From positions 1-21,084 of the forward strand of contig JAWABM010000012.1 in assembly GCA_038999215.1 (NCBI GenBank): a DNA stretch of 21,084 bases, in the 5' to 3' direction. The DNA comes from Candidatus Aenigmatarchaeota archaeon. GTDB taxonomy: Archaea; Aenigmatarchaeota; Aenigmatarchaeia; Aenigmatarchaeales; JACQIB01. Positions 4,539 through 14,546 of the stretch are shown one piece after another; the first letter of the stretch is position 1, and each line of letters opens with the position of its first letter. The notes below the pieces were generated by a model that was not told the DNA's origin, did no database searches, and saw nothing but the letters and a program-made list of their open reading frames with translations. The position numbers were made by a program, and so were the translations under genes.

Positions 4539-5816
4539 ATGGCGAAGCTCAAGCGCGCACTAGGACTGTTCGAGACCACGATGTACGGCGTCGGGATAAT
4601 ACTTGGCGCGGGCATTTATGTTCTCATAGGCAAGGCCGCAGGAATAGCCGGAAGCGGGGTGTGGCTCTCGTTCCTTGCGGCGGCGGTTGTAGCGGCGGTC
4701 ACGGGCATGAGCTATGCCGAGCTTTCGTCCATGTACCCGAAGGACGCGGCCGAATACCTCTACACGCACAAGGCGTTCAGGAGCAGGAGGCTCTCATTCC
4801 TCGTGGGATGGCTGATGCTGTTCGCGCTCATAGTCGCATCCGCGGCGGTCGCCCTCGGCTTCGCAGGATACTTCTCCGCGATGTTCGGAGCGCCGGTCGT
4901 GCTGTCGGCGCTTGCGCTTGTCATACTGCTGTCGCTCCTTAACTTCTGGGGGATAAAAGAATCCGCCTGGATGAACATACTCTTCACGCTCATAGAGATG
5001 GCGGGATTGGCGATAATAATATTTCTCGGCATAGGCCATTTCGGCAGCGTCAACTATTTCGAAATACCCGGCGGGTTCGGAAGCCTAATGGCTGCCGCAG
5101 TGCTGGTGTTCTTCGCCTATCTCGGGTTCGAGGACCTGGTCAACATAGCCGAGGAGGTCAGGGAGCCGAAAAGGACGATGCCGAGGGCGCTGCTGTATTC
5201 CATAGCCATAACCACAGTGATATACATGCTGGTATCGGTTTCGGCAGTCAGCATACTGCCGTGGCAGGAGCTCGGCGCATCGAAGGCGCCGCTGGCGGAC
5301 GTGGCGAACGCGGCCTGGCCGGGCTCTTCCGCGCTGCTGGCATTCATAGCGCTCTTCGCAACGACGAACACAGTGCTGTTCCTGCTCGTCGCATGCTCCA
5401 GGATAATGTACGGCATGTCGTGCCAGAACGCGCTCCCAAGGACGCTCTGCACCGTGCACAAGTCCAGGCGCACGCCATGGATAGCCGTGCTCGCGACAAT
5501 GCTGCTGGCTGCGGCCTTCGTGACAATAGGCAACATAAGGACCGTGGCGGAGCTGACGGACTGGGCGGTCTTCTTCGTGTTCTTCTTCATAAACGCGTCC
5601 CTCATCTGGCTCAGGAAGACAAGGCCAGGCGAGGTCAGGGGTTTCAGGGTCCCGCTGAAGATAGGATGGGTGCCTGTGCTGCCGGCCTTCGGGGCGCTGT
5701 TCTGCGCCTACATGATGACACACTTCGAGCTCTCGCTGTCGCTGTTCGGCATCGGCGTCATAACCGCAGGAGCGGTCGCATACGAAGTTCTCAAGAAGGC
5801 CGGCAAGATTCAGTGA
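4539..5816 (+). CDS. APC-family amino acid permease
   Basis: LKRALGL...GIILGAGIY, YAELSSMYP, FFAYLGFE, AEEVREPKR motifs and about 12 hydrophobic segments. Confidence 0.93.
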   Translation: MAKLKRALGLFETTMYGVGIILGAGIYVLIGKAAGIAGSGVWLSFLAAAVVAAVTGMSYAELSSMYPKDAAEYLYTHKAFRSRRLSFLVGWLMLFALIVASAAVALGFAGYFSAMFGAPVVLSALALVILLSLLNFWGIKESAWMNILFTLIEMAGLAIIIFLGIGHFGSVNYFEIPGGFGSLMAAAVLVFFAYLGFEDLVNIAEEVREPKRTMPRALLYSIAITTVIYMLVSVSAVSILPWQELGASKAPLADVANAAWPGSSALLAFIALFATTNTVLFLLVACSRIMYGMSCQNALPRTLCTVHKSRRTPWIAVLATMLLAAAFVTIGNIRTVAELTDWAVFFVFFFINASLIWLRKTRPGEVRGFRVPLKIGWVPVLPAFGALFCAYMMTHFELSLSLFGIGVITAGAVAYEVLKKAGKIQ

Positions 5817-6694
5817 ATGCGCGTCGTGACTATCGGCTTCTCATCGACCAGCACAGTGTGCTCGGCCTGCGAGACAGGAGCGCCAGACACCTCCTTCAGG
5901 ACCATGTAAGGGTGCAGCGCTCCGGCCGAGACAAGCTGCTTCAGGGCGGCCTCCATCCTGACACCGGGCATCTTCAGCCACCTTTTCGCGAAGGGCAGCA
6001 TGCTGTATTCCTTCTTAGCCAGCTCCATTATCTTCCTCGCTTCAGGCAGCCTGGACGGCTTGTCAGCAATACAGCGGAAAATGAGTGTCGGTTCGGAATC
6101 CTTGACCATACCGGCCCCGGTCGTGGCGAAGGGCTCGACAGCATAGGCCTCCCCCTCCTCCAACCTCTTGCCGGCCCCGTTCCTGACGTTCGGTATGACA
6201 TGACCGGCATGGAGGTCGTACTGCGAAAGCGAATGGCCAGTCAGGTTCGCGACGGGCTTGAAGCCCATACCTTTCGCCACATCCTCAATGGCGGCGCCGA
6301 TATCTGATATCCTCGTGCCGGGCACGAAGAGCGGAAGCGCGGCATCTAACATTTTCTTCGAGCACCTTATGAGGTCGTCCTCACCGGCAGGACGGACGGT
6401 AACGGCGGTGTCCCCTATGAACCCGTTGACATGCGCCCCGACATCGAGCTTGACGTAGTCGTTTTTGCCTATCACCATCCTGTCGCCTGCAACAGGCGTA
6501 TAGTGCGCGGCCACATCATTGATGGAGACGTTCATCGGGAACGCGGGCTTTCCGCCAAGCTCCCTTATCCTGGCTTCGGTCTTCTCCGCAATGTCAAGAA
6601 CGAGCGCACCCTCTTTCGCGAGCGCTGCAGCGTACTGCAGCGCCTGCGCAGCTATCCTTCCCGCCTCCTTGTAGCATTTGATTTCATCCGTCAT
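5810..6694 (-). CDS. map: Type II methionine aminopeptidase
   Basis: AFPMNVSINDVAAHYTP, KLDVGAHVNGFIGDTA, NLTGHS, AVEPFAT, SQAEHTV. Confidence 0.96.
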   Translation of the reverse strand: MTDEIKCYKEAGRIAAQALQYAAALAKEGALVLDIAEKTEARIRELGGKPAFPMNVSINDVAAHYTPVAGDRMVIGKNDYVKLDVGAHVNGFIGDTAVTVRPAGEDDLIRCSKKMLDAALPLFVPGTRISDIGAAIEDVAKGMGFKPVANLTGHSLSQYDLHAGHVIPNVRNGAGKRLEEGEAYAVEPFATTGAGMVKDSEPTLIFRCIADKPSRLPEARKIMELAKKEYSMLPFAKRWLKMPGVRMEAALKQLVSAGALHPYMVLKEVSGAPVSQAEHTVLVDEKPIVTTRIH

Positions 6695-7803
6695 TTCATC
6701 AGCTGCCCCTCAGTGACGCCGAACACCTGCAGCACCCTCAGGGCCGCAGGCAGGACCTGCTTCTTCGCGTAGTAATCGAAATCTATCTGGCCGAGCTTCG
6801 GTCCGGGATAAGGCTCCGCCCTTTCGGACAGCGGTCCGCCGCCCTTCACGATGACGAACCTTATTATCATCCCCCGGCTGACCGCTAGGCCAGCCGCCCT
6901 CATCTTCCTGGCCGCTGCCAGATGAGCGGTCTTTGCCTTGTACTGGCTCATGGGCTTTGCGAGCTGTACGTTTATCACAAGATCTTCCATTTTCACCTTG
7001 CCTTCCCTGACGCAGGCCAGCATGTTTCTGGCGTAGCTCACCGCTTCGCTTTTCTTTTCAAGAAGTATGAGCTGCAATATCCTTTTCTGCACCTCCTTGG
7101 CGAGCCTGCACCAATCCTCCCTCCTGGTCTCGAAGCCGCGCACGAGCAGCTCGCCCTTCCTGTCCATGAGCGCGTACTTCTTCTTCGCCCCTCTGCCTTC
7201 CTTGGTCGTGACGAACAGACCGCGTTCATAGTAGCCGCGGAACTCGAGCCTTATCACGCCGGGCAGCTCCCTGTTCACCTTTTTGAGCAGCCTCTTCGCT
7301 GAAGAGGCTCCACACTTGAGGAAGACGGCGTCAGTGTCGGCGTATATCACCTCAAGCCCGGCCTTCTCGGCGTCGCTTATGACCTTCTTTATGTAATAGC
7401 GCCCGAATGCGGCTATGGATTCCGCAATCTTAACATTGTAATAAGGGCTTCCCCTGTAACCGAAGTAACCATAGGCTATGTTCGCAGCAAGCTTGAGCTG
7501 CTGCTCCCTCTTAGCTAGCTTCTCGTCATATTTCCTCTTAAGCTTCCTCTTAACCTCCCACCGCTCCTCCAGAATCTTCCTGAGCCTCTTCGGTATGTCG
7601 CCTTCCGGCTTCTTGCAGAACCACCTGTCCTCGAAGCCTGGCACGCGGTCCTTTTCGCTGCAAGGCTTGCAGAAGGTCTTGACGTCTATGTTGTGCGTTA
7701 TTATGATGCTCGGATAAAGGTTCCTGAAATCAAGCACGGACAGGCCCTTGTGCATGCCAGCCTTGGGCTCCTTCACGAAGCCGCCTTCGTACTGCGTTTC
7801 CAT
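6691..7803 (-). CDS. polB: Family B DNA polymerase, polymerase domain only (370 aa, no exonuclease or N-terminal domain)
   Basis: Starts METQYEGGFVKEP. Motif A DFRNLYPS, motif B KLAANIAYG, motif C YADTD, KKKYAL, RGFETRREDW, DFDYY..KQVLPA..RVL. Overlaps map by ATGA. Confidence 0.9.
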   Translation of the reverse strand: METQYEGGFVKEPKAGMHKGLSVLDFRNLYPSIIITHNIDVKTFCKPCSEKDRVPGFEDRWFCKKPEGDIPKRLRKILEERWEVKRKLKRKYDEKLAKREQQLKLAANIAYGYFGYRGSPYYNVKIAESIAAFGRYYIKKVISDAEKAGLEVIYADTDAVFLKCGASSAKRLLKKVNRELPGVIRLEFRGYYERGLFVTTKEGRGAKKKYALMDRKGELLVRGFETRREDWCRLAKEVQKRILQLILLEKKSEAVSYARNMLACVREGKVKMEDLVINVQLAKPMSQYKAKTAHLAAARKMRAAGLAVSRGMIIRFVIVKGGGPLSERAEPYPGPKLGQIDFDYYAKKQVLPAALRVLQVFGVTEGQLMK

Positions 7804-7826
7804 GGGAAAGAGTTGTGGACTCGGAC

Positions 7827-7835
7827 TTATAAAAA
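7827..7835 (-). promoter_or_regulatory. TATA box of the short polB (probably a leaderless transcript)
   Basis: TTTTTATAA on the minus strand ending 23 nt before the ATG at 7803, which is canonical archaeal spacing. Confidence 0.65.
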
Positions 7836-7941
7836 CTTCCAGAAAGGAGATGTTGCAGCATCCTATAAGCTTTAAATACATGCTCAATTGTCTTACAAAG
7901 TAGAAGCGACACCCGGATATTACAACTCGAGGTATGTTCAA

Positions 7942-8115
7942 ATGCCAAAACCGAAGAAAAAGGAGCAACCCAAGAAGGAAGCGAAAGAGATGAAGGAAGA
8001 AGAAAAGAAATGGGACGAGGAAGAGGAGATCGTGGAGGAAGAGGCGAACATGGAAGAATCCGAAGGGGCCGCGGAAGAGACGGAAGAGGAAGAGGAGTCG
8101 GAAGAAGAATGGTAG
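7942..8115 (+). CDS. Small low-complexity protein with Lys-rich N-terminus and Glu-rich C-terminus (57 aa)
   Basis: GAGGT RBS upstream, TTTAAATA at 7871-7878, terminator-like hairpin downstream. 27 of 57 residues are acidic. Confidence 0.7.
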   Translation: MPKPKKKEQPKKEAKEMKEEEKKWDEEEEIVEEEANMEESEGAAEETEEEEESEEEW

Positions 8116-8863: not shown

Positions 8864-10207
8864 ATGCACGCAGAAATCGATGCTGATAACCATATGAACG
8901 GGAAAAATTCGAACGGAACGCAGAAGAAGATGAAAGTGCTCATAGTTTCTCATGAGGCCCTTGGCTCGGACCTGGCGTGGCAGCTCACGAAAGAAGGCCA
9001 TGCCGTGAAATTCTTCATAGAGGAGAAAAAATACAAGGAGATAGCCGACGGCTTCACGGAAAAGTCCGAGGACTGGAGGAAGGACGCCGAATGGGCCGAC
9101 CTGATAATATTCGATGACTGCCTCGGATTCGGCAAGGAGGCGGAGAAACTGAGGAAGGAAGGCAAGCTCGTCGTCGGAGGGACTGCATACACGGACAGGC
9201 TGGAGGACGAGCGCGAATTCGGTCAAAACGAAATGAAATCCGCCGGGATAACGATTCTGCCGCACTGGGATTTCACGGACTTCGACGACGCGATAAAATT
9301 CGTCAGGGACCGGCCAGGCCGCTATGTGCTCAAGCCCTGCGGGAAGATAGCGAGCGAGAAAGAGCTTCTGTTCGTGGGGCAGGAAGACGACGGCATGGAC
9401 ATGCTTCAGATGCTGGAGCACTACAAGAAGAACTGGTCAAAGAAGATGAAGTCGTTCCAGCTGCAGAAGTTCGTCAAGGGCGTGGAGATAGCGGTCGGGG
9501 CGTACTTCAACGGGAAGAAGTTCATCACGCCGATCAATGTGAATTTCGAGCACAAGAAGCTGTTCCCAGGTGAGAAGGGCCCCAGCACCGGTGAGATGGG
9601 CACTTCGATGTACTGGTGCCAGCCGAACGCGATATTCAACGCCACGCTCGCGAAGATGGCGCCAAAGCTGGCCGAGACAGGATACGTCGGCTATATCGAC
9701 ATCAACTGCATAGTGAACGCCAACGGCATACATCCGCTCGAATTCACGTGCAGATTCGGTTGGCCTACCCTGAACATACAACTCGAGGGCATCCTCAACC
9801 CTATAGGAGAGTTCCTTTACGCCCTTGCAAAGGGAGAGGACTATGAGCTGAGGGTGAAGCCTGGCTTCCAAGTCGGAGTGGTGATAGCGGTGCCGCCCTT
9901 CCCGTTCGACGACCCCGTGACATACAAGAAATTCTCGGAAGACGCGACCATACTATTCAAGAAGCCTAACTATGACGGGGTGCACATAGGCGACGTCAAA
10001 AAGGCCGGGGACGACTGGCTGGTCACCGGCTACAGCGGATACCTCCTGATAGTCACAGGTTCAGGGCCCACGATGAAGGACGCGCAGGAGCAGGCCTACA
10101 AACGCGTGGAGAACATAATGGTGCCCAACATGTTCTTCAGGACCGACATAGGCGACAGATGGGCGCTCGATTCCGACAGGCTCCAGACATGGGGCTATCT
10201 GCCATAA
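8864..10207 (+). CDS. purD: PurD-like ATP-grasp ligase (phosphoribosylamine-glycine ligase family); start may be 8930
   Basis: LEDEREFG, YVLKP, EHKKLFPGEKGPSTGEMG (compare PurD GPNTGGMG), LEFTCRFGWP, FFRTDIG. Confidence 0.75.
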   Translation: MHAEIDADNHMNGKNSNGTQKKMKVLIVSHEALGSDLAWQLTKEGHAVKFFIEEKKYKEIADGFTEKSEDWRKDAEWADLIIFDDCLGFGKEAEKLRKEGKLVVGGTAYTDRLEDEREFGQNEMKSAGITILPHWDFTDFDDAIKFVRDRPGRYVLKPCGKIASEKELLFVGQEDDGMDMLQMLEHYKKNWSKKMKSFQLQKFVKGVEIAVGAYFNGKKFITPINVNFEHKKLFPGEKGPSTGEMGTSMYWCQPNAIFNATLAKMAPKLAETGYVGYIDINCIVNANGIHPLEFTCRFGWPTLNIQLEGILNPIGEFLYALAKGEDYELRVKPGFQVGVVIAVPPFPFDDPVTYKKFSEDATILFKKPNYDGVHIGDVKKAGDDWLVTGYSGYLLIVTGSGPTMKDAQEQAYKRVENIMVPNMFFRTDIGDRWALDSDRLQTWGYLP

Positions 10208-10253: not shown

Positions 10254-13067
10254 TTAATCGCTCCAGAAGCGGTGCGTGCGGATGAACTCGCGCTCCGCGC
10301 TGAGAATCTCCTTGTAGAGCCTGTCCTCATCCTTGAAGGCGAAGGTCTTGCTGAGGATGCGGAGCGCCGTCTGCGGGCCAACGCCGCGGCCTGCCAAAGC
10401 TATTGCCCCACGCTTGCCGTAGGCGACCATGACATCGGCAGACATCTTTATTCTTCGCAGCTTTTCGGCCTCCTCGTCCGTAAGCTGGCCTCCTTTCAGC
10501 CTCTTCTTGATTATGCCCTGCGCTTCTGTCATGTGGGGGTGCACGCAAGCGAGCAGCTTCGAAGTGCACTGCGGGCAGCGCGGGTCATTGGCAACATCAT
10601 CGGCCTTGAAGACCACCGAGTACCTCCCGCAGTTCAGGCACACGAGCCTGACTTTGGTGTTAAGCAGCCGCTTCTTGATTATCTTCAGGATCTCGGCCTC
10701 AGGCCTGTCGGGCTTGGCTATGTCATGGAGCTCCTGCTGCAGGCCGAGCTCGCCCAGCAGGCTGAGGCCCTCGAAAGCCTGCACCTTCATCCCCCCTCCG
10801 CTTATATCCTTTATTATTTTTTCGGTTTGCTCCACATCGAGCTTCTCAACGAACAGCTCCCTGAGCGTTTCCCTGGCTATCGGAGAATTCCCATATATTT
10901 TGATGATGTTGTCGATGTTTATCTTGTCATATTTGGCGCCCTTCATTATGGCGCCGAAGCGCTTGGCAATCTGCACGAACCTGTGCTTGTAGAGGCTTGA
11001 GCGCGGAAGGGAGAGGGCGAGCACGGTCCTTATCTGATCCGGCCTCGCATCCCTGAGTATCCTTATCACATCGCAGGCCTGCACGTTGCCGAAGATTATC
11101 CTGTATGGGTCGGATTTGCTCGTGATGACCCTGCCCTGCTCTGCGGTAAGTATCGCCGATATGTAGCGTGCTAGGGTCTCATTCACAAGTGAGCCGAAGC
11201 AGCAATGCAGGACAGTGAATTCTCCCGAATGCTCAACGGTTATCGACCTGTTGTCGGGCACAGGGAACTTCTCGGCCTGCTTTCCGATTATCCAGACCAT
11301 CTTGTTGGCAGTCTGCTCAGAGACGGGATATTTCTCCCTCACCTTCCCGGCTATCTCGGATTTCTTCATGCCCTTCCTCAAATACTGCCATATCTGGCGG
11401 CGCAAGGCGCCGACTTCCTGAGAGATCTCGAAAGGCACAGGTATGAGCTCGCCCTCCCAGGCGGGAACGGACGACTCCAGTCCAGACATCTGCTCAACGT
11501 ACACCTTGTCCTTTTCCACCGAGACAACGCGCCAGGTCCGGCCTTTGACAATGAACGATGAGCCCGGCTCCGAGTGCTCCGACACGAACGCTTCGTCCAG
11601 CGAGCCGACCATCACGTTCGAGGCAAGGTCGATTATCTTGTAGGTTATGTTGTCCGGTATGACGGACAGGTTCGTGAAATAGTATTCGAATGCCTTCCTT
11701 CCCCTCCTTATGCCTTCGCCCAAAAACAATATGCGCAAGGACGCCAAGAACTCCAGAATGCCCTGGAACTCCTTCTCCGTCATCTCTCTGTAGGGCCATG
11801 CCTTCCTGAGCGTTTCGTAGACGAGCTTTGGGCTGACGTCGTACCGCTCCATTGCCATGCCGACTATCTGATGGGCCAGAACGTCAGTCGCGTTCTCATG
11901 AAAGCGCGGCCTTTCCATTTCCCTCGCAATGGCCTTCCTTGCTATCACCGCCGCTTCGAACATGTCGTCAGCTTCGGTCGCGATTACTATCCCTTTGCTT
12001 ACTTTGCCGACACCGTGGCCTGAGCGGCCCACGCGCTGCAGCAGCTGCGTCACCTCGCGAGGGCTCATGTATTGTATGACCAAGTCTATCATGCCTATGT
12101 CTATGCCGAGCTGCAAGGAGCTCGTGGCTATCAGGGACCTCAGGGCCTCGGATTTGAACTCCCTCTCAGCCTTGAGACGCACGTCCTTGCCAAGCGAAGA
12201 ATGATGAACTTCATGCTTGAGCTCGCTGTCCAGAACGCGCAACCTCGAGGAGAGCATCTCGGCAGCCTCGCGCGTGTTCGTGAAAGCAAGCACAGCCTTG
12301 TGGGAGACCATGAGGTCATGTATCCTCCTCAACCTGGCTGCGACTGACTCTGGAAGATTCATCCTCTCGGCAAGGGCCGCGTCTTCTGCTCTGGGGAGCG
12401 GAGATTCGACCCTTATGTCCAGCCTGGTATCCTGGCCCGCGCTGACAATCTCGCGCCTCTTTCCGGCGAAAAGGAAATCGGCAGCCTTCTCAGGCGAGCC
12501 CACAGTGGCGGACAGCGCGACCATCTGCGGATCGCCGCAGAGCAGTTTGAGCCTTTCAAGGGCAAGCACAAGCTGAACTCCGCGCTTGCTGTCTATGAGC
12601 TCATGAGCCTCGTCAACAACAACATACTTAACGTTTGCCAGAAGCTTCCTCATCTTCTCGCCGGTGAGCATGGGCTGGAGCTGCTCAGGGGTCGTTATCA
12701 TTATCCGCGGCGGATGCTCCAGCTGCAGCCGTCGCTCCCGCTGGCTCGTGTCGCCGTGGCGGACAGCTATGTCGAGGTCGAGCTTGTCGCACCACCAGAC
12801 CAGCCTGTCGAGCATGTCGCGGTTCAATGCTTTCAGCGGAGTGATGTAGAGAAGCGCTACGGGATCGTGCTCCTTTTCAACGAGCATGTTGAGCAATGGC
12901 AGCATGCACGACTCCGTTTTCCCCATGCCTGTGCCCGCTATCGCCAGGACATTCTCCCCCTTCAGAACAAGCGGTATGACCTCTTCCTGCACCCTTGTCG
13001 GCACAGCGAAGCGAGCTATAGCTAGGTCTTTCACCCGGCTGTTAAGTAACTGGAACGCACCAGCCAT
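10254..13067 (-). CDS. lhr: Lhr-family SF2 helicase with C-terminal Zn finger
   Basis: AGTGMGKT, TPLKALNRD, RHGDT, DEAH, LSAT, HHSSL, QRVGRSGH, VPAWEGE, and C-terminal CLNC...CPQC. Confidence 0.92.
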   Translation of the reverse strand: MAGAFQLLNSRVKDLAIARFAVPTRVQEEVIPLVLKGENVLAIAGTGMGKTESCMLPLLNMLVEKEHDPVALLYITPLKALNRDMLDRLVWWCDKLDLDIAVRHGDTSQRERRLQLEHPPRIMITTPEQLQPMLTGEKMRKLLANVKYVVVDEAHELIDSKRGVQLVLALERLKLLCGDPQMVALSATVGSPEKAADFLFAGKRREIVSAGQDTRLDIRVESPLPRAEDAALAERMNLPESVAARLRRIHDLMVSHKAVLAFTNTREAAEMLSSRLRVLDSELKHEVHHSSLGKDVRLKAEREFKSEALRSLIATSSLQLGIDIGMIDLVIQYMSPREVTQLLQRVGRSGHGVGKVSKGIVIATEADDMFEAAVIARKAIAREMERPRFHENATDVLAHQIVGMAMERYDVSPKLVYETLRKAWPYREMTEKEFQGILEFLASLRILFLGEGIRRGRKAFEYYFTNLSVIPDNITYKIIDLASNVMVGSLDEAFVSEHSEPGSSFIVKGRTWRVVSVEKDKVYVEQMSGLESSVPAWEGELIPVPFEISQEVGALRRQIWQYLRKGMKKSEIAGKVREKYPVSEQTANKMVWIIGKQAEKFPVPDNRSITVEHSGEFTVLHCCFGSLVNETLARYISAILTAEQGRVITSKSDPYRIIFGNVQACDVIRILRDARPDQIRTVLALSLPRSSLYKHRFVQIAKRFGAIMKGAKYDKINIDNIIKIYGNSPIARETLRELFVEKLDVEQTEKIIKDISGGGMKVQAFEGLSLLGELGLQQELHDIAKPDRPEAEILKIIKKRLLNTKVRLVCLNCGRYSVVFKADDVANDPRCPQCTSKLLACVHPHMTEAQGIIKKRLKGGQLTDEEAEKLRRIKMSADVMVAYGKRGAIALAGRGVGPQTALRILSKTFAFKDEDRLYKEILSAEREFIRTHRFWSD

Positions 13068-13197
13068 AGCCACCAACTATAACGCCGTTATACAACGGCA
13101 TGTCAACGGCGCTGGAAATAGTAAGCATACGAAAGCGCTTAAAGCTTCACTTCTCGGAAAAGTTTAAAATAAAGGTTTGTTCGCACATAAATTTTTC

Positions 13198-13899
13198 ATG
13201 TCAGACGCCACAGAACTGCTCGGTTTGCTGACGAATGCCATCGCAGGGACAAAGGAAAGGAACATCGCAATAGCCTTTTCTGGCGGATTGGACAGCGCAG
13301 TAATAGCAAAAATAGCCTCTGAAAGAATGAGGGCGACGCTTTACACAGCTGGTGCGACAGGTTGCAAGGACTTTGCTGCCGCAGAGAGCGCCGCCAAAAT
13401 GCTGGGACTTCCATTAAGGAAGATAGAGCCAAGCGAAGCAGAAGTGGCCGAAGCCTCTCAGGAGCTTGCAAAGACAATAAGGACCGACAATTTGCTCATC
13501 CTGTCCTATACGCTTCCGCTCTGGTTCGTATGCAGGAGCTGCAGCGAGACCGCGGTCGTCAGCGGGCAGGGAGCCGACGAGCTGTTCGGCGGCTATGCCA
13601 AGTACCAGAGGTCAGCAGACGCGGCAGGCGAAATGAGGCGCGACCTGGAAAAACTGGCATCCGGCGGTTTGGAGCAGAAGATAGCCTCGCATTTCGGCAA
13701 GAAGCTCATCCTGCCGTTCCTCGACAGGGCGGTCATAAGGTTCTCTACCGCGCTCCCGCTGGAAAGAAAGATATCGGGCGGAAGGAACAAGATAATACTC
13801 AGGGAGGCAGCTGAAATGCTGGATTTGGGCTTGATTGCCCAAAGGCCTAAGAAGGCGGCGCAGTACGGCAGCGGGATAGCGAAGGTGCTTTCGAGATGA
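13198..13899 (+). CDS. Standalone asparagine-synthase C-terminal (PP-loop) domain protein
   Basis: FSGGLDS, SGQGADELFGGY, LPFLD, KIILREAA, RPKKAAQYGSG. No N-terminal glutaminase domain. Confidence 0.88.
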   Translation: MSDATELLGLLTNAIAGTKERNIAIAFSGGLDSAVIAKIASERMRATLYTAGATGCKDFAAAESAAKMLGLPLRKIEPSEAEVAEASQELAKTIRTDNLLILSYTLPLWFVCRSCSETAVVSGQGADELFGGYAKYQRSADAAGEMRRDLEKLASGGLEQKIASHFGKKLILPFLDRAVIRFSTALPLERKISGGRNKIILREAAEMLDLGLIAQRPKKAAQYGSGIAKVLSR

Positions 13900-14546
13900 A
13901 CAGCAGGCATAAAATGAAAATCATAATCAGGGAATTCAAGAGGCGTTACGGGCCCAAGCCAACGCATGGCCGGCCTTTCGAGACGCTGATAGAGACCATA
14001 ATATCGCAGCGCAACACGGACGTGAGCACCGCCAAGGTAGCGAAGAAGCTTTTCTCAGTAGCCAGGACGCCCGAAGCGCTCTCCGCGCTTCCGATGAGGA
14101 AGCTGCAGAGCATACTGAGGCCGGCGGGCACATGGAGGCAGAAGGCCTGCTACATACGTCAAGTCTCCAATATAATCCTTAATAGGTACAATGGCAAGGT
14201 GCCGAAAGAGAGGCAGAAGCTCATCGACCTGCCCGGCGTGGGGCCGAAGACGGCGGACATAGTGCTGATGTACGGGCACGGGATACCGAGCATAGCAATT
14301 GACACGCACTGCGACCGCATTCCGCGCAGGCTCGGCTTGGTGCCGAAAGACGCGAAAATGCGCGAGATAAAGGAAGCTCTGGAGAGGCTCACGCCGAAAA
14401 GGGAGTGGCGCATCGTCAACCACGGCTTCGTCTCGTTCGGGCAGGAGATGTGCAGAGCAGCGAACCCGCGCTGCGCTTGCTGCCCTTTCCTGAGATTCTG
14501 CCCTTTCGGCAAGGAAATGGTTAAAAGATTGAAACCCCAGAGATAG
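13896..14546 (+). CDS. nth: Endonuclease III (HhH-GPD DNA glycosylase/lyase with 4Fe-4S cluster)
   Basis: PFETLIETIISQ, LPGVGPKTA, IDTH, C-x6-C-x2-C-x5-C. Overlaps the upstream gene by ATGA. Confidence 0.94.
   Translation: MNSRHKMKIIIREFKRRYGPKPTHGRPFETLIETIISQRNTDVSTAKVAKKLFSVARTPEALSALPMRKLQSILRPAGTWRQKACYIRQVSNIILNRYNGKVPKERQKLIDLPGVGPKTADIVLMYGHGIPSIAIDTHCDRIPRRLGLVPKDAKMREIKEALERLTPKREWRIVNHGFVSFGQEMCRAANPRCACCPFLRFCPFGKEMVKRLKPQR

Follow-up and report, generated by a model that had tools for sequence, protein, structure and literature searches.

Archaeal DNA polymerases of group B3 (PolB3; PMC7544198), among them the KOD, Pfu, 9N and Deep Vent enzymes, are proteins of about 800 residues that carry uracil-sensing and exonuclease domains as well as the polymerase fold with its motifs A, B and C. 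In the Methanobacteriales and Nanoarchaeum equitans, PolB3 is split into genes shorter than full length, both halves being encoded (PMC4104785). PolB2, exemplified by the 555-residue Dpo2 of S. islandicus, is a small, non-proofreading enzyme found beside a separate replicase and shown to act in damage tolerance (PMC7390963, PMC7544198, PMC4104785). Proofreading is also lacking in engineered PolBs such as Therminator (A485L), Kod-RI and 9N-YRI (A485R with E664I) and Tgo TGK, all of which keep every domain (PMC9738464). Here we describe a PolB3 of only 370 residues encoded at 6691..7803 on the minus strand of a 21,084-nucleotide stretch of Candidatus Aenigmatarchaeota DNA (the window; contig JAWABM010000012.1 of assembly GCA_038999215.1), which we call mini-PolB3.

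We found no description of a PolB3 consisting of the polymerase domain only in the open-access literature: passages of PMC7544198, PMC4104785, PMC12680538 and PMC12926913 describe none, and members may be listed in the supplement of PMC7544198. The methods of PMC12680538 state that sequences truncated at the N- or C-terminus were excluded prior to analysis, a filter which may explain the gap.

The gene runs from an ATG at 7803 to a TGA at 6693-6691 without internal stops. Its product begins METQYEGGFVKEP, ends FGVTEGQLMK and comprises the linker end, palm, fingers and thumb. Pfam, alignment with KOD and an AlphaFold model agree on this, bearing out an initial annotation, made from the DNA alone, of an uninterrupted standalone polymerase domain with both catalytic Asp motifs (motif A, D25; motif C, D156/D158). 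DNA_pol_B (PF00136), over residues 3-359, is the sole Pfam match; the alignment spans residues 383-752 of KOD, Pfu and Deep Vent; and the model (mean pLDDT 91, pTM 0.81) superposes on the polymerase domains of Thermococcales PolBs with TM(query) values of up to 0.86. The protein thus combines the palm-fingers-thumb fold and PF00136 with the motif A, B and C residues expected of family B, including K-x3-N-x2-Y-G, and both its best sequence and its best structure matches are to PolB3. Neither an N-terminal uracil-recognition domain nor a 3'-5' exonuclease domain (Exo I-III) was found in it with Pfam or with a profile built from the N-terminal halves of 17 full-length PolB3s (the N-half profile). 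The same profile has no match in any frame upstream of the gene, so that an exonuclease hidden there by a frameshift, which the annotation had already argued against, is rejected. The C-terminal PCNA-interacting peptide (PIP) motif is missing too, as had been noted; this holds for the window protein but is not specific to the mini form, since 6 of 37 full-length PolB3s from the class also lack the tail and 4 of 29 minis have an LxxF tail. The gene is the palm-fingers-thumb of a PolB3, and the relatives described below show it to be neither an artefact nor a decaying fragment.

The start of the protein at the Y-E-G-G boundary of the polymerase domain, with a TATA box of its own, was likewise part of the initial annotation and stands. 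The TATA box TTTTTATAA lies at 7827..7835 on the minus strand, 23 nt ahead of the ATG, a spacing that suggests a near-leaderless transcript. The stop-to-stop frame remains open for 121 codons further upstream, and a database gene call (P0002, 396 residues) begins 26 codons before the ATG. Position 7803 is nonetheless the likely start, because an ATG sits 3-7 codons ahead of Y-x-G-G in all 14 mini loci examined and a TATA-like match occurs within 45 nt of it in 11 of them. At its other end the gene is coupled by ATGA to map (methionine aminopeptidase by Pfam, 5810..6694, minus strand), its stop overlapping the map ATG as originally described. Among the loci compared, this linkage is ancestral to the polB3 locus, which map marks, and is not specific to the mini form.

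A protein search returned 73 matches of 203-648 residues. Twenty-four of these are 340-385 residues long, with 99-100% query coverage and 49-73% identity, and their named members are Aenigmatarchaeota. With loci from genomes and metagenomes and a divergent member (P0085, 42% identity) added, there are 30 distinct mini sequences, so that orthologues of about 370 residues (340-385) with the same start, envisaged in the initial annotation, do exist. In a polymerase tree (residues 4-275, 84 rows, quick search) all minis form one clade, with a Shimodaira-Hasegawa-like approximate likelihood ratio (SH-aLRT) of 100, outside the full-length PolB3 clades of their own order. Among the 14 closest mini pairs, drawn from 13 loci, three are saturated and the other 11 have ratios of nonsynonymous to synonymous substitution rates (dN/dS, NG86) of 0.056-0.206; the ratio is 0.085 between the window gene and its nearest relative, and the corresponding range for full-length PolB3 pairs is 0.051-0.133 (5 of 14 estimable). 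These values are rough, dS being near saturation, but they lie far below 1 and indicate a family under purifying selection. Shared start, purifying selection, a single clade and the separate proofreading polymerase discussed below together support the suggestion that the window gene represents a class of mini-PolBs.

Of 371 genomes of the class, 203 have a match at E<=1e-60 (56 of these matches are not listed); short, intact, high-identity frames are found only in this order among the matches listed. One short frame outside the order was rejected as a mini, being due to a scaffold gap, and three more lie near contig starts. One mini gene (L067) comes from a 3.5-kb contig assigned to a bacterial genome; a neighbour of this gene also occurs beside archaeal polB3, and the contig is probably mis-binned.

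Within the order, 8 of 42 genomes have the mini form, 25 a full-length PolB3, 9 neither and none both. The mini genomes, 81-93% complete, are G000 (the window's own), G001, G008, G023, G030, G036, G040 and G032, the last with an interrupted copy. The window protein is 42-50% identical to the full-length PolB3s of Aenigmatarchaeota, with which it shares a locus (Lhr ... polB3 ... map), and 32% identical to the B6 polymerase described below. The minis differ from archaeal PolB3 in size (370 against about 800 residues), in having no uracil-sensing or exonuclease domain and mostly no PIP tail, in clade-specific fingers and thumb residues and in being much more basic. Judged by sequence, then, mini-PolB3 descends from PolB3 but fails the canonical PolB3 architecture, and is not a PolB2, a B6 or a split PolB.

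The active site was compared between 29 minis and 37 full-length class members, with KOD numbering fixed by alignment to 5vu5 and 1wn7 (window positions below are on the minus strand). The equivalents of D404, K487, N491, Y494, D540, D542, K591-K592, Y594 and R612 are invariant in 29/29 minis; all of the catalytic and most of the triphosphate-binding residues are thus retained. Motif A of the window protein, D25-F-R-N-L-Y30-P-S (7708..7731), has its catalytic Asp and steric-gate Tyr intact; across the minis the gate (Y409) is Tyr in 24, Leu in 3 and Phe in 2, and the S407 equivalent is Asn in 19/29. Motif C, Y154-A-D156-T-D158 (7330..7344), keeps both Asp in every mini. The fingers helix carrying motif B, E100-Q-Q102-L-K104-L-A-A-N108-I109-A-Y111-G (7468..7506), is remodelled around its invariant K, N, Y and G: Q483 is replaced by Glu in 24/29 minis (5/37 full-length members), A485 by Gln in 24/29 (0/37), I488 by Leu in 29/29 (1/37), L489 by Ala in 27/29 (0/37) and S492 by Ile in 29/29 (0/37, and 0/153 full-length sequences overall). 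Rev3 presumably also has a beta-branched residue after the motif-B Asn, though we found no paper to confirm it. W504 is Trp in only one of the 29 minis as against all 37 full-length members. In the thumb, the motif R227-R228-E229 (7117..7125) reflects V611 to Arg (25/29 against 1/37) and R613 to Glu or Gly (29/29 against 4/37), and V279 (6967..6969) occupies the position of E664, the 'second steric gate', which is Val or Ile in 27/29 minis and in none of the full-length members (Glu 27, Thr 10). The clade-specific changes at Q483, A485, S492, R613 and E664 line the dNTP pocket and the thumb.

A485, Y409 and E664 are key sites of engineered, substrate-relaxed PolBs (PMC9738464). The resemblance lies in the changes at A485 and E664, joined in some minis by one at Y409, and in the expected freedom from uracil stalling, obtained through V93Q in the engineered enzymes (PMC9738464) and through domain loss here. 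The residues themselves differ, the engineered enzymes carrying Leu or Arg and Ile or Lys where the aligned minis have Gln and Val. The surface is altered as well. Median net charge of the polymerase domain is about +42 in minis and +17 in full-length enzymes; values run from +34 to +52 across seven mini genomes, while 19 members of the order with the full-length enzyme span +7 to +34. B6 polymerases have no such shift (+4 to +12 in mini genomes, 0 to +14 in full-length genomes).

That second polymerase, detected in 39 of the order's 42 genomes, supplies the separate full-length PolB that the initial annotation suggested looking for. Its Exo I-III and uracil-pocket-like motifs are largely preserved across these genomes. 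In G000 it is an 885-residue protein (C2:6422-9082) that has both and also a C-terminal zinc motif of DP2 type, the last being missing from the mini protein. It is the B6-aenigma1 of Kazlauskas et al. (PMC7544198), proposed there as a replacement for PolD DP2; contact of B6 with an inactive DP1 has been tested by two-hybrid (PMC12680538). DP2 was found in none of the 42 genomes. Nor does the Pfam DP1 model match in any of them, probably because the inactive DP1 has diverged, a 276-residue gene being just upstream of the G000 B6. PCNA was found in 5/5 mini genomes tested, PolY in 0/5 and PolX in 0/5. B6 is the likely replicase of this order, and PolB3 looks dispensable since it was not found in 9/42 genomes. 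In family f1 (G002, G003, G004 and G006, 80-92% complete) neither form of PolB3 was found and, DP2 being absent, B6 may be the only canonical DNA polymerase. Six B6 polymerases (L233, L238, L239, L241, L263 and L264) contain an insert of about 400-450 residues at motif C, probably an intein; that of G000 has none.

The mini gene occupies the position of full-length polB3 in relatives, near map and often downstream of Lhr. Its distribution is patchy, the starred branches of a 39-protein B6 tree forcing at least four changes between mini and full-length forms, and mini subclades also track host subclades (genus g1; g17). One case is particularly informative. The mini genome G036 is sister to the full-length genome G015, and their DNA is 90% identical upstream through the start codon. 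From there to about residue 291 the G036 gene is of mini type and shares 58% of its nucleotides with G015; beyond that point it is 88% identical to G015, PIP-like tail included (best-break p 2e-22, uncorrected; the G036 assembly has 4% contamination). G036 thus seems to be a recombinant allele with native promoter and thumb and a mini core. A 9-nt stretch ending in ATG is common to G015, G036 and three related mini loci, which would fit recombination with thumb homology as one anchor and start-codon microhomology as the other; L151 has a similar break at residue 293. In G036 the simplest direction is from the full-length to the mini form. A single marker does not distinguish transfer from ancestral co-existence followed by differential loss in the case of the deeper changes, and a map tree is too unresolved for lineage placement.

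Two kinds of interruption of polB3 were also seen. In G032 (L057:6080-8444, contig C18) the mini gene is cut just past motif C into open reading frames (ORFs) of 172 and 208 residues, separated by an oppositely oriented LAGLIDADG-domain ORF of 298 residues; Rfam gave no match to a group I intron in the insert. In G016 and G021 (L276:520-3667, L277:512-3701) a full-length PolB3 is split at the same post-motif-C loop into ORFs of about 590 and 245-255 residues around an unrelated gene of about 214 residues, the second halves beginning like that of G032. These may represent a new natural two-piece PolB3.

Taken together, these observations lead us to propose, with about as much belief as doubt, that mini-PolB3 is an exonuclease-free, uracil-blind, damage-tolerant, gap-filling accessory polymerase derived from PolB3. 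B6, with inactive DP1, would replicate the chromosome, and the mini enzyme would act distributively beside it, gripping primer-template ends through a very basic surface that replaces the lost domains and, in most members, working without PCNA. It would fill short gaps or extend stalled, mismatched or damaged primer ends. With the N-terminal pocket gone it should not stall ahead of template uracil or hypoxanthine, with the exonuclease gone it could not idle, and with fingers and thumb remodelled it may choose nucleotides and primers less strictly or differently. In this way it might take the niche of PolY, PolX or PolB2. Dpo2, although reached by a different route, would be its best functional analogue. 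PolB2 has lost the first motif-C Asp, whereas the minis keep both (D156 is invariant) and derive from B3, and PolB2 is linked to arCOG07300 and an inactive RadA, operon partners that the minis do not have; a RadA/RadB-family gene in the window lies 6 kb from mini-PolB3, outside its operon. A non-proofreading B-family enzyme beside a proofreading replicase also recalls eukaryotic Pol zeta and Pol alpha.

Several points weigh against this proposal. The activity and fidelity of mini-PolB3 are predicted from sequence. The window protein retains its steric-gate Tyr, and outside the class sample Thr takes the place of E664 in 113 of 116 full-length PolB3s, a set enriched by the search patterns. The changes at A485, S492 and E664 could mean structural compensation or raised fidelity; in Kod and 9N the A485R-E664I pair enhances fidelity for threose nucleic acid (TNA) (PMC9738464). 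No damage-response partner genes of the kind linked to PolB2 were found linked to the mini loci. The dUTPase/dCTP-deaminase family is present in 1/8 mini and 19/25 full-length genomes (Fisher p 0.003), but once kinship is taken into account a link between its loss and the mini form lacks support and is no more than a lead, as four independent pairs give a sign test p of 0.5 and the matches mix dCTP-deaminase-like with dUTPase-like proteins; uracil-DNA glycosylase (2/8 mini genomes) follows no pattern. A bolder form of the proposal, which we put forward tentatively and think probably goes too far, is that a single-module PolB of about 370 residues has converged on the engineered substrate-promiscuous design and serves as the lesion-bypass or primer-extending enzyme of the B6/DP1 replisome, spreading between Aenigmatarchaeota lineages by overwriting the resident full-length polB3 allele in place.

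Plain streamlining would have an ordinary gap-filling PolB3 shed 420 residues, the substitutions and charge merely compensating and base selectivity remaining normal. Small genomes, the 9/42 in which no PolB3 was found and the steric gate intact in 24/29 minis all speak for it, as do clade-specific changes in the KOD R503 and W504 region, away from catalytic residues and perhaps at former domain contacts. We nevertheless consider it somewhat unlikely, for the substitutions concentrate in the dNTP-binding helix (Q483, A485, I488, L489, S492), S492I being universal in minis and absent from the 153 full-length sequences, and streamlining alone leaves the recombinational replacement of an intact full-length allele in G036 unexplained.

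Alternatively, the enzyme might resemble Pol alpha or be promiscuous for substrate, extending RNA primers or taking ribo- or modified nucleotides before handing over to a Pol-delta-like B6/DP1. It has natural changes at A485 and E664, the sites altered in Kod-RI and 9N-YRI and, with Y409, in the RNA-synthesising TGK (PMC9738464); Leu or Phe takes the place of the steric-gate Tyr in 5/29 minis; and PolD is absent and the replicase eukaryote-like (PMC7544198, PMC12680538). Such a role cannot be essential, however, given that the same B6 system occurs in genomes with full-length PolB3 and in those without PolB3. As none of the loci examined links the gene to a primase, the window protein keeps Y409 and ordinary PolB3s often have Thr at 664, we regard this alternative as quite unlikely.

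It is very doubtful that the mini form is a mutator or selfish allele spreading by recombination and hitchhiking without lasting benefit to its host. The patchy distribution, with its four or more changes on the B6 tree, the in-place replacement with 9-nt microhomology at the start codon and the LAGLIDADG ORF in the G032 copy would suit such an element. Against it stand long persistence under purifying selection, with members down to 42% identity, the way mini subclades follow host subclades, and the lack of a mobility gene beside intact copies. A search for a viral origin gave only three distant viral matches, at 28-30% identity.

The initial annotation had also raised the possibility that mini-PolB3 is half of a new split enzyme, pairing in trans with a separate N-terminal/exonuclease subunit, and the start exactly at a domain boundary and the incompleteness of all the genomes leave some room for this. 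The known splits of Methanobacteriales and Nanoarchaeum equitans reportedly fall inside the polymerase domain. While both halves are encoded there, the profile search found a PolB3 N-terminal half in 0/8 mini genomes, compared with 25/42 genomes of the order overall. In G000 the sole match is the B6 on contig C2, and across the eight genomes the profile matches the second PolB plus one 46-residue stretch (E 0.004) in G040. Standalone PF13482 was found in none of the eight, and the DEDD-type exonuclease families PF00929 and PF01612 in 0/5 mini genomes tested each. In G036, moreover, the N-half has been removed from its locus. G000 does encode, on contig C3, a standalone, divergent 473-residue PolB-type N-terminal/exonuclease protein, adjacent to a degenerate polymerase half of 449 residues (L270:1749-6566; G000:C3:25748-30565). 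A standalone exonuclease gene of the kind looked for therefore exists, but as a family-wide partner of mini-PolB3 it is rejected: it has its own polymerase half and matches 0/7 other mini genomes, only G020 (a full-length PolB3 genome) and, weakly, G006, and does not significantly resemble the PolB3 N-half (hhalign probability 2%). On this evidence the split-enzyme idea is not supported and is highly improbable. The third gene of the C3 trio encodes a divergent protein of 657 residues without a Pfam match, in which a nuclease-like motif was read by eye; a similar trio is present only in G020.

Misassembly, a pseudogene or a catalytically dead remnant is barely credible, and misassembly in particular very unlikely because independent orthologues share the start: one public DNA run matched 0.22 of the sequence words and its contigs gave no coverage of the 7776-7983 junction, which is uninformative either way, while the 30 distinct relatives, some on contigs of 150-740 kb, have dN/dS far below 1 and invariant catalytic residues.

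The mini family suggests that selection can maintain a PolB polymerase domain as a stable enzyme of less than half the usual size, without N-terminal and exonuclease domains. A C-terminal proteolytic fragment of Sulfolobus PolB1 is said to have polymerase activity, a report that we did not find in the literature. In DPANN archaea without PolD DP2, from which PolY and PolX were also missing wherever they were looked for, the minis may offer a route to damage tolerance or primer handling. The occurrence of both allele types at a single locus in sister genomes, together with a recombinant, amounts to a natural paired experiment, and the proteins are small natural scaffolds already substituted at positions targeted in polymerase engineering.

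Upstream of mini-PolB3 lie a small divergent ORF and a CxxCxxCC gene. The small ORF (7942..8115, plus strand) fills the position expected for an exonuclease half and encodes 57 residues with a basic start and an acidic tail; it has no Pfam match (scanned from the second codon). Possibly, and this is a guess, it is a DNA mimic or a chaperone-like peptide. A small ORF resembling it is also found near the mini gene in L146. Lhr helicase (10254..13076, minus strand; Pfam and locus comparison) also lies upstream of polB3 in relatives, whether these have the full-length or the mini form. The same 15 kb of the window hold the RadA/RadB-family gene (200-706), Lhr and an endonuclease III-type glycosylase (13896-14546), and the latter two also lie near polB3 in relatives. 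A phosphoribosylglycinamide-synthetase-like ATP-grasp gene lies at 8864-10207 on the plus strand, with other purine-pathway genes not nearby.

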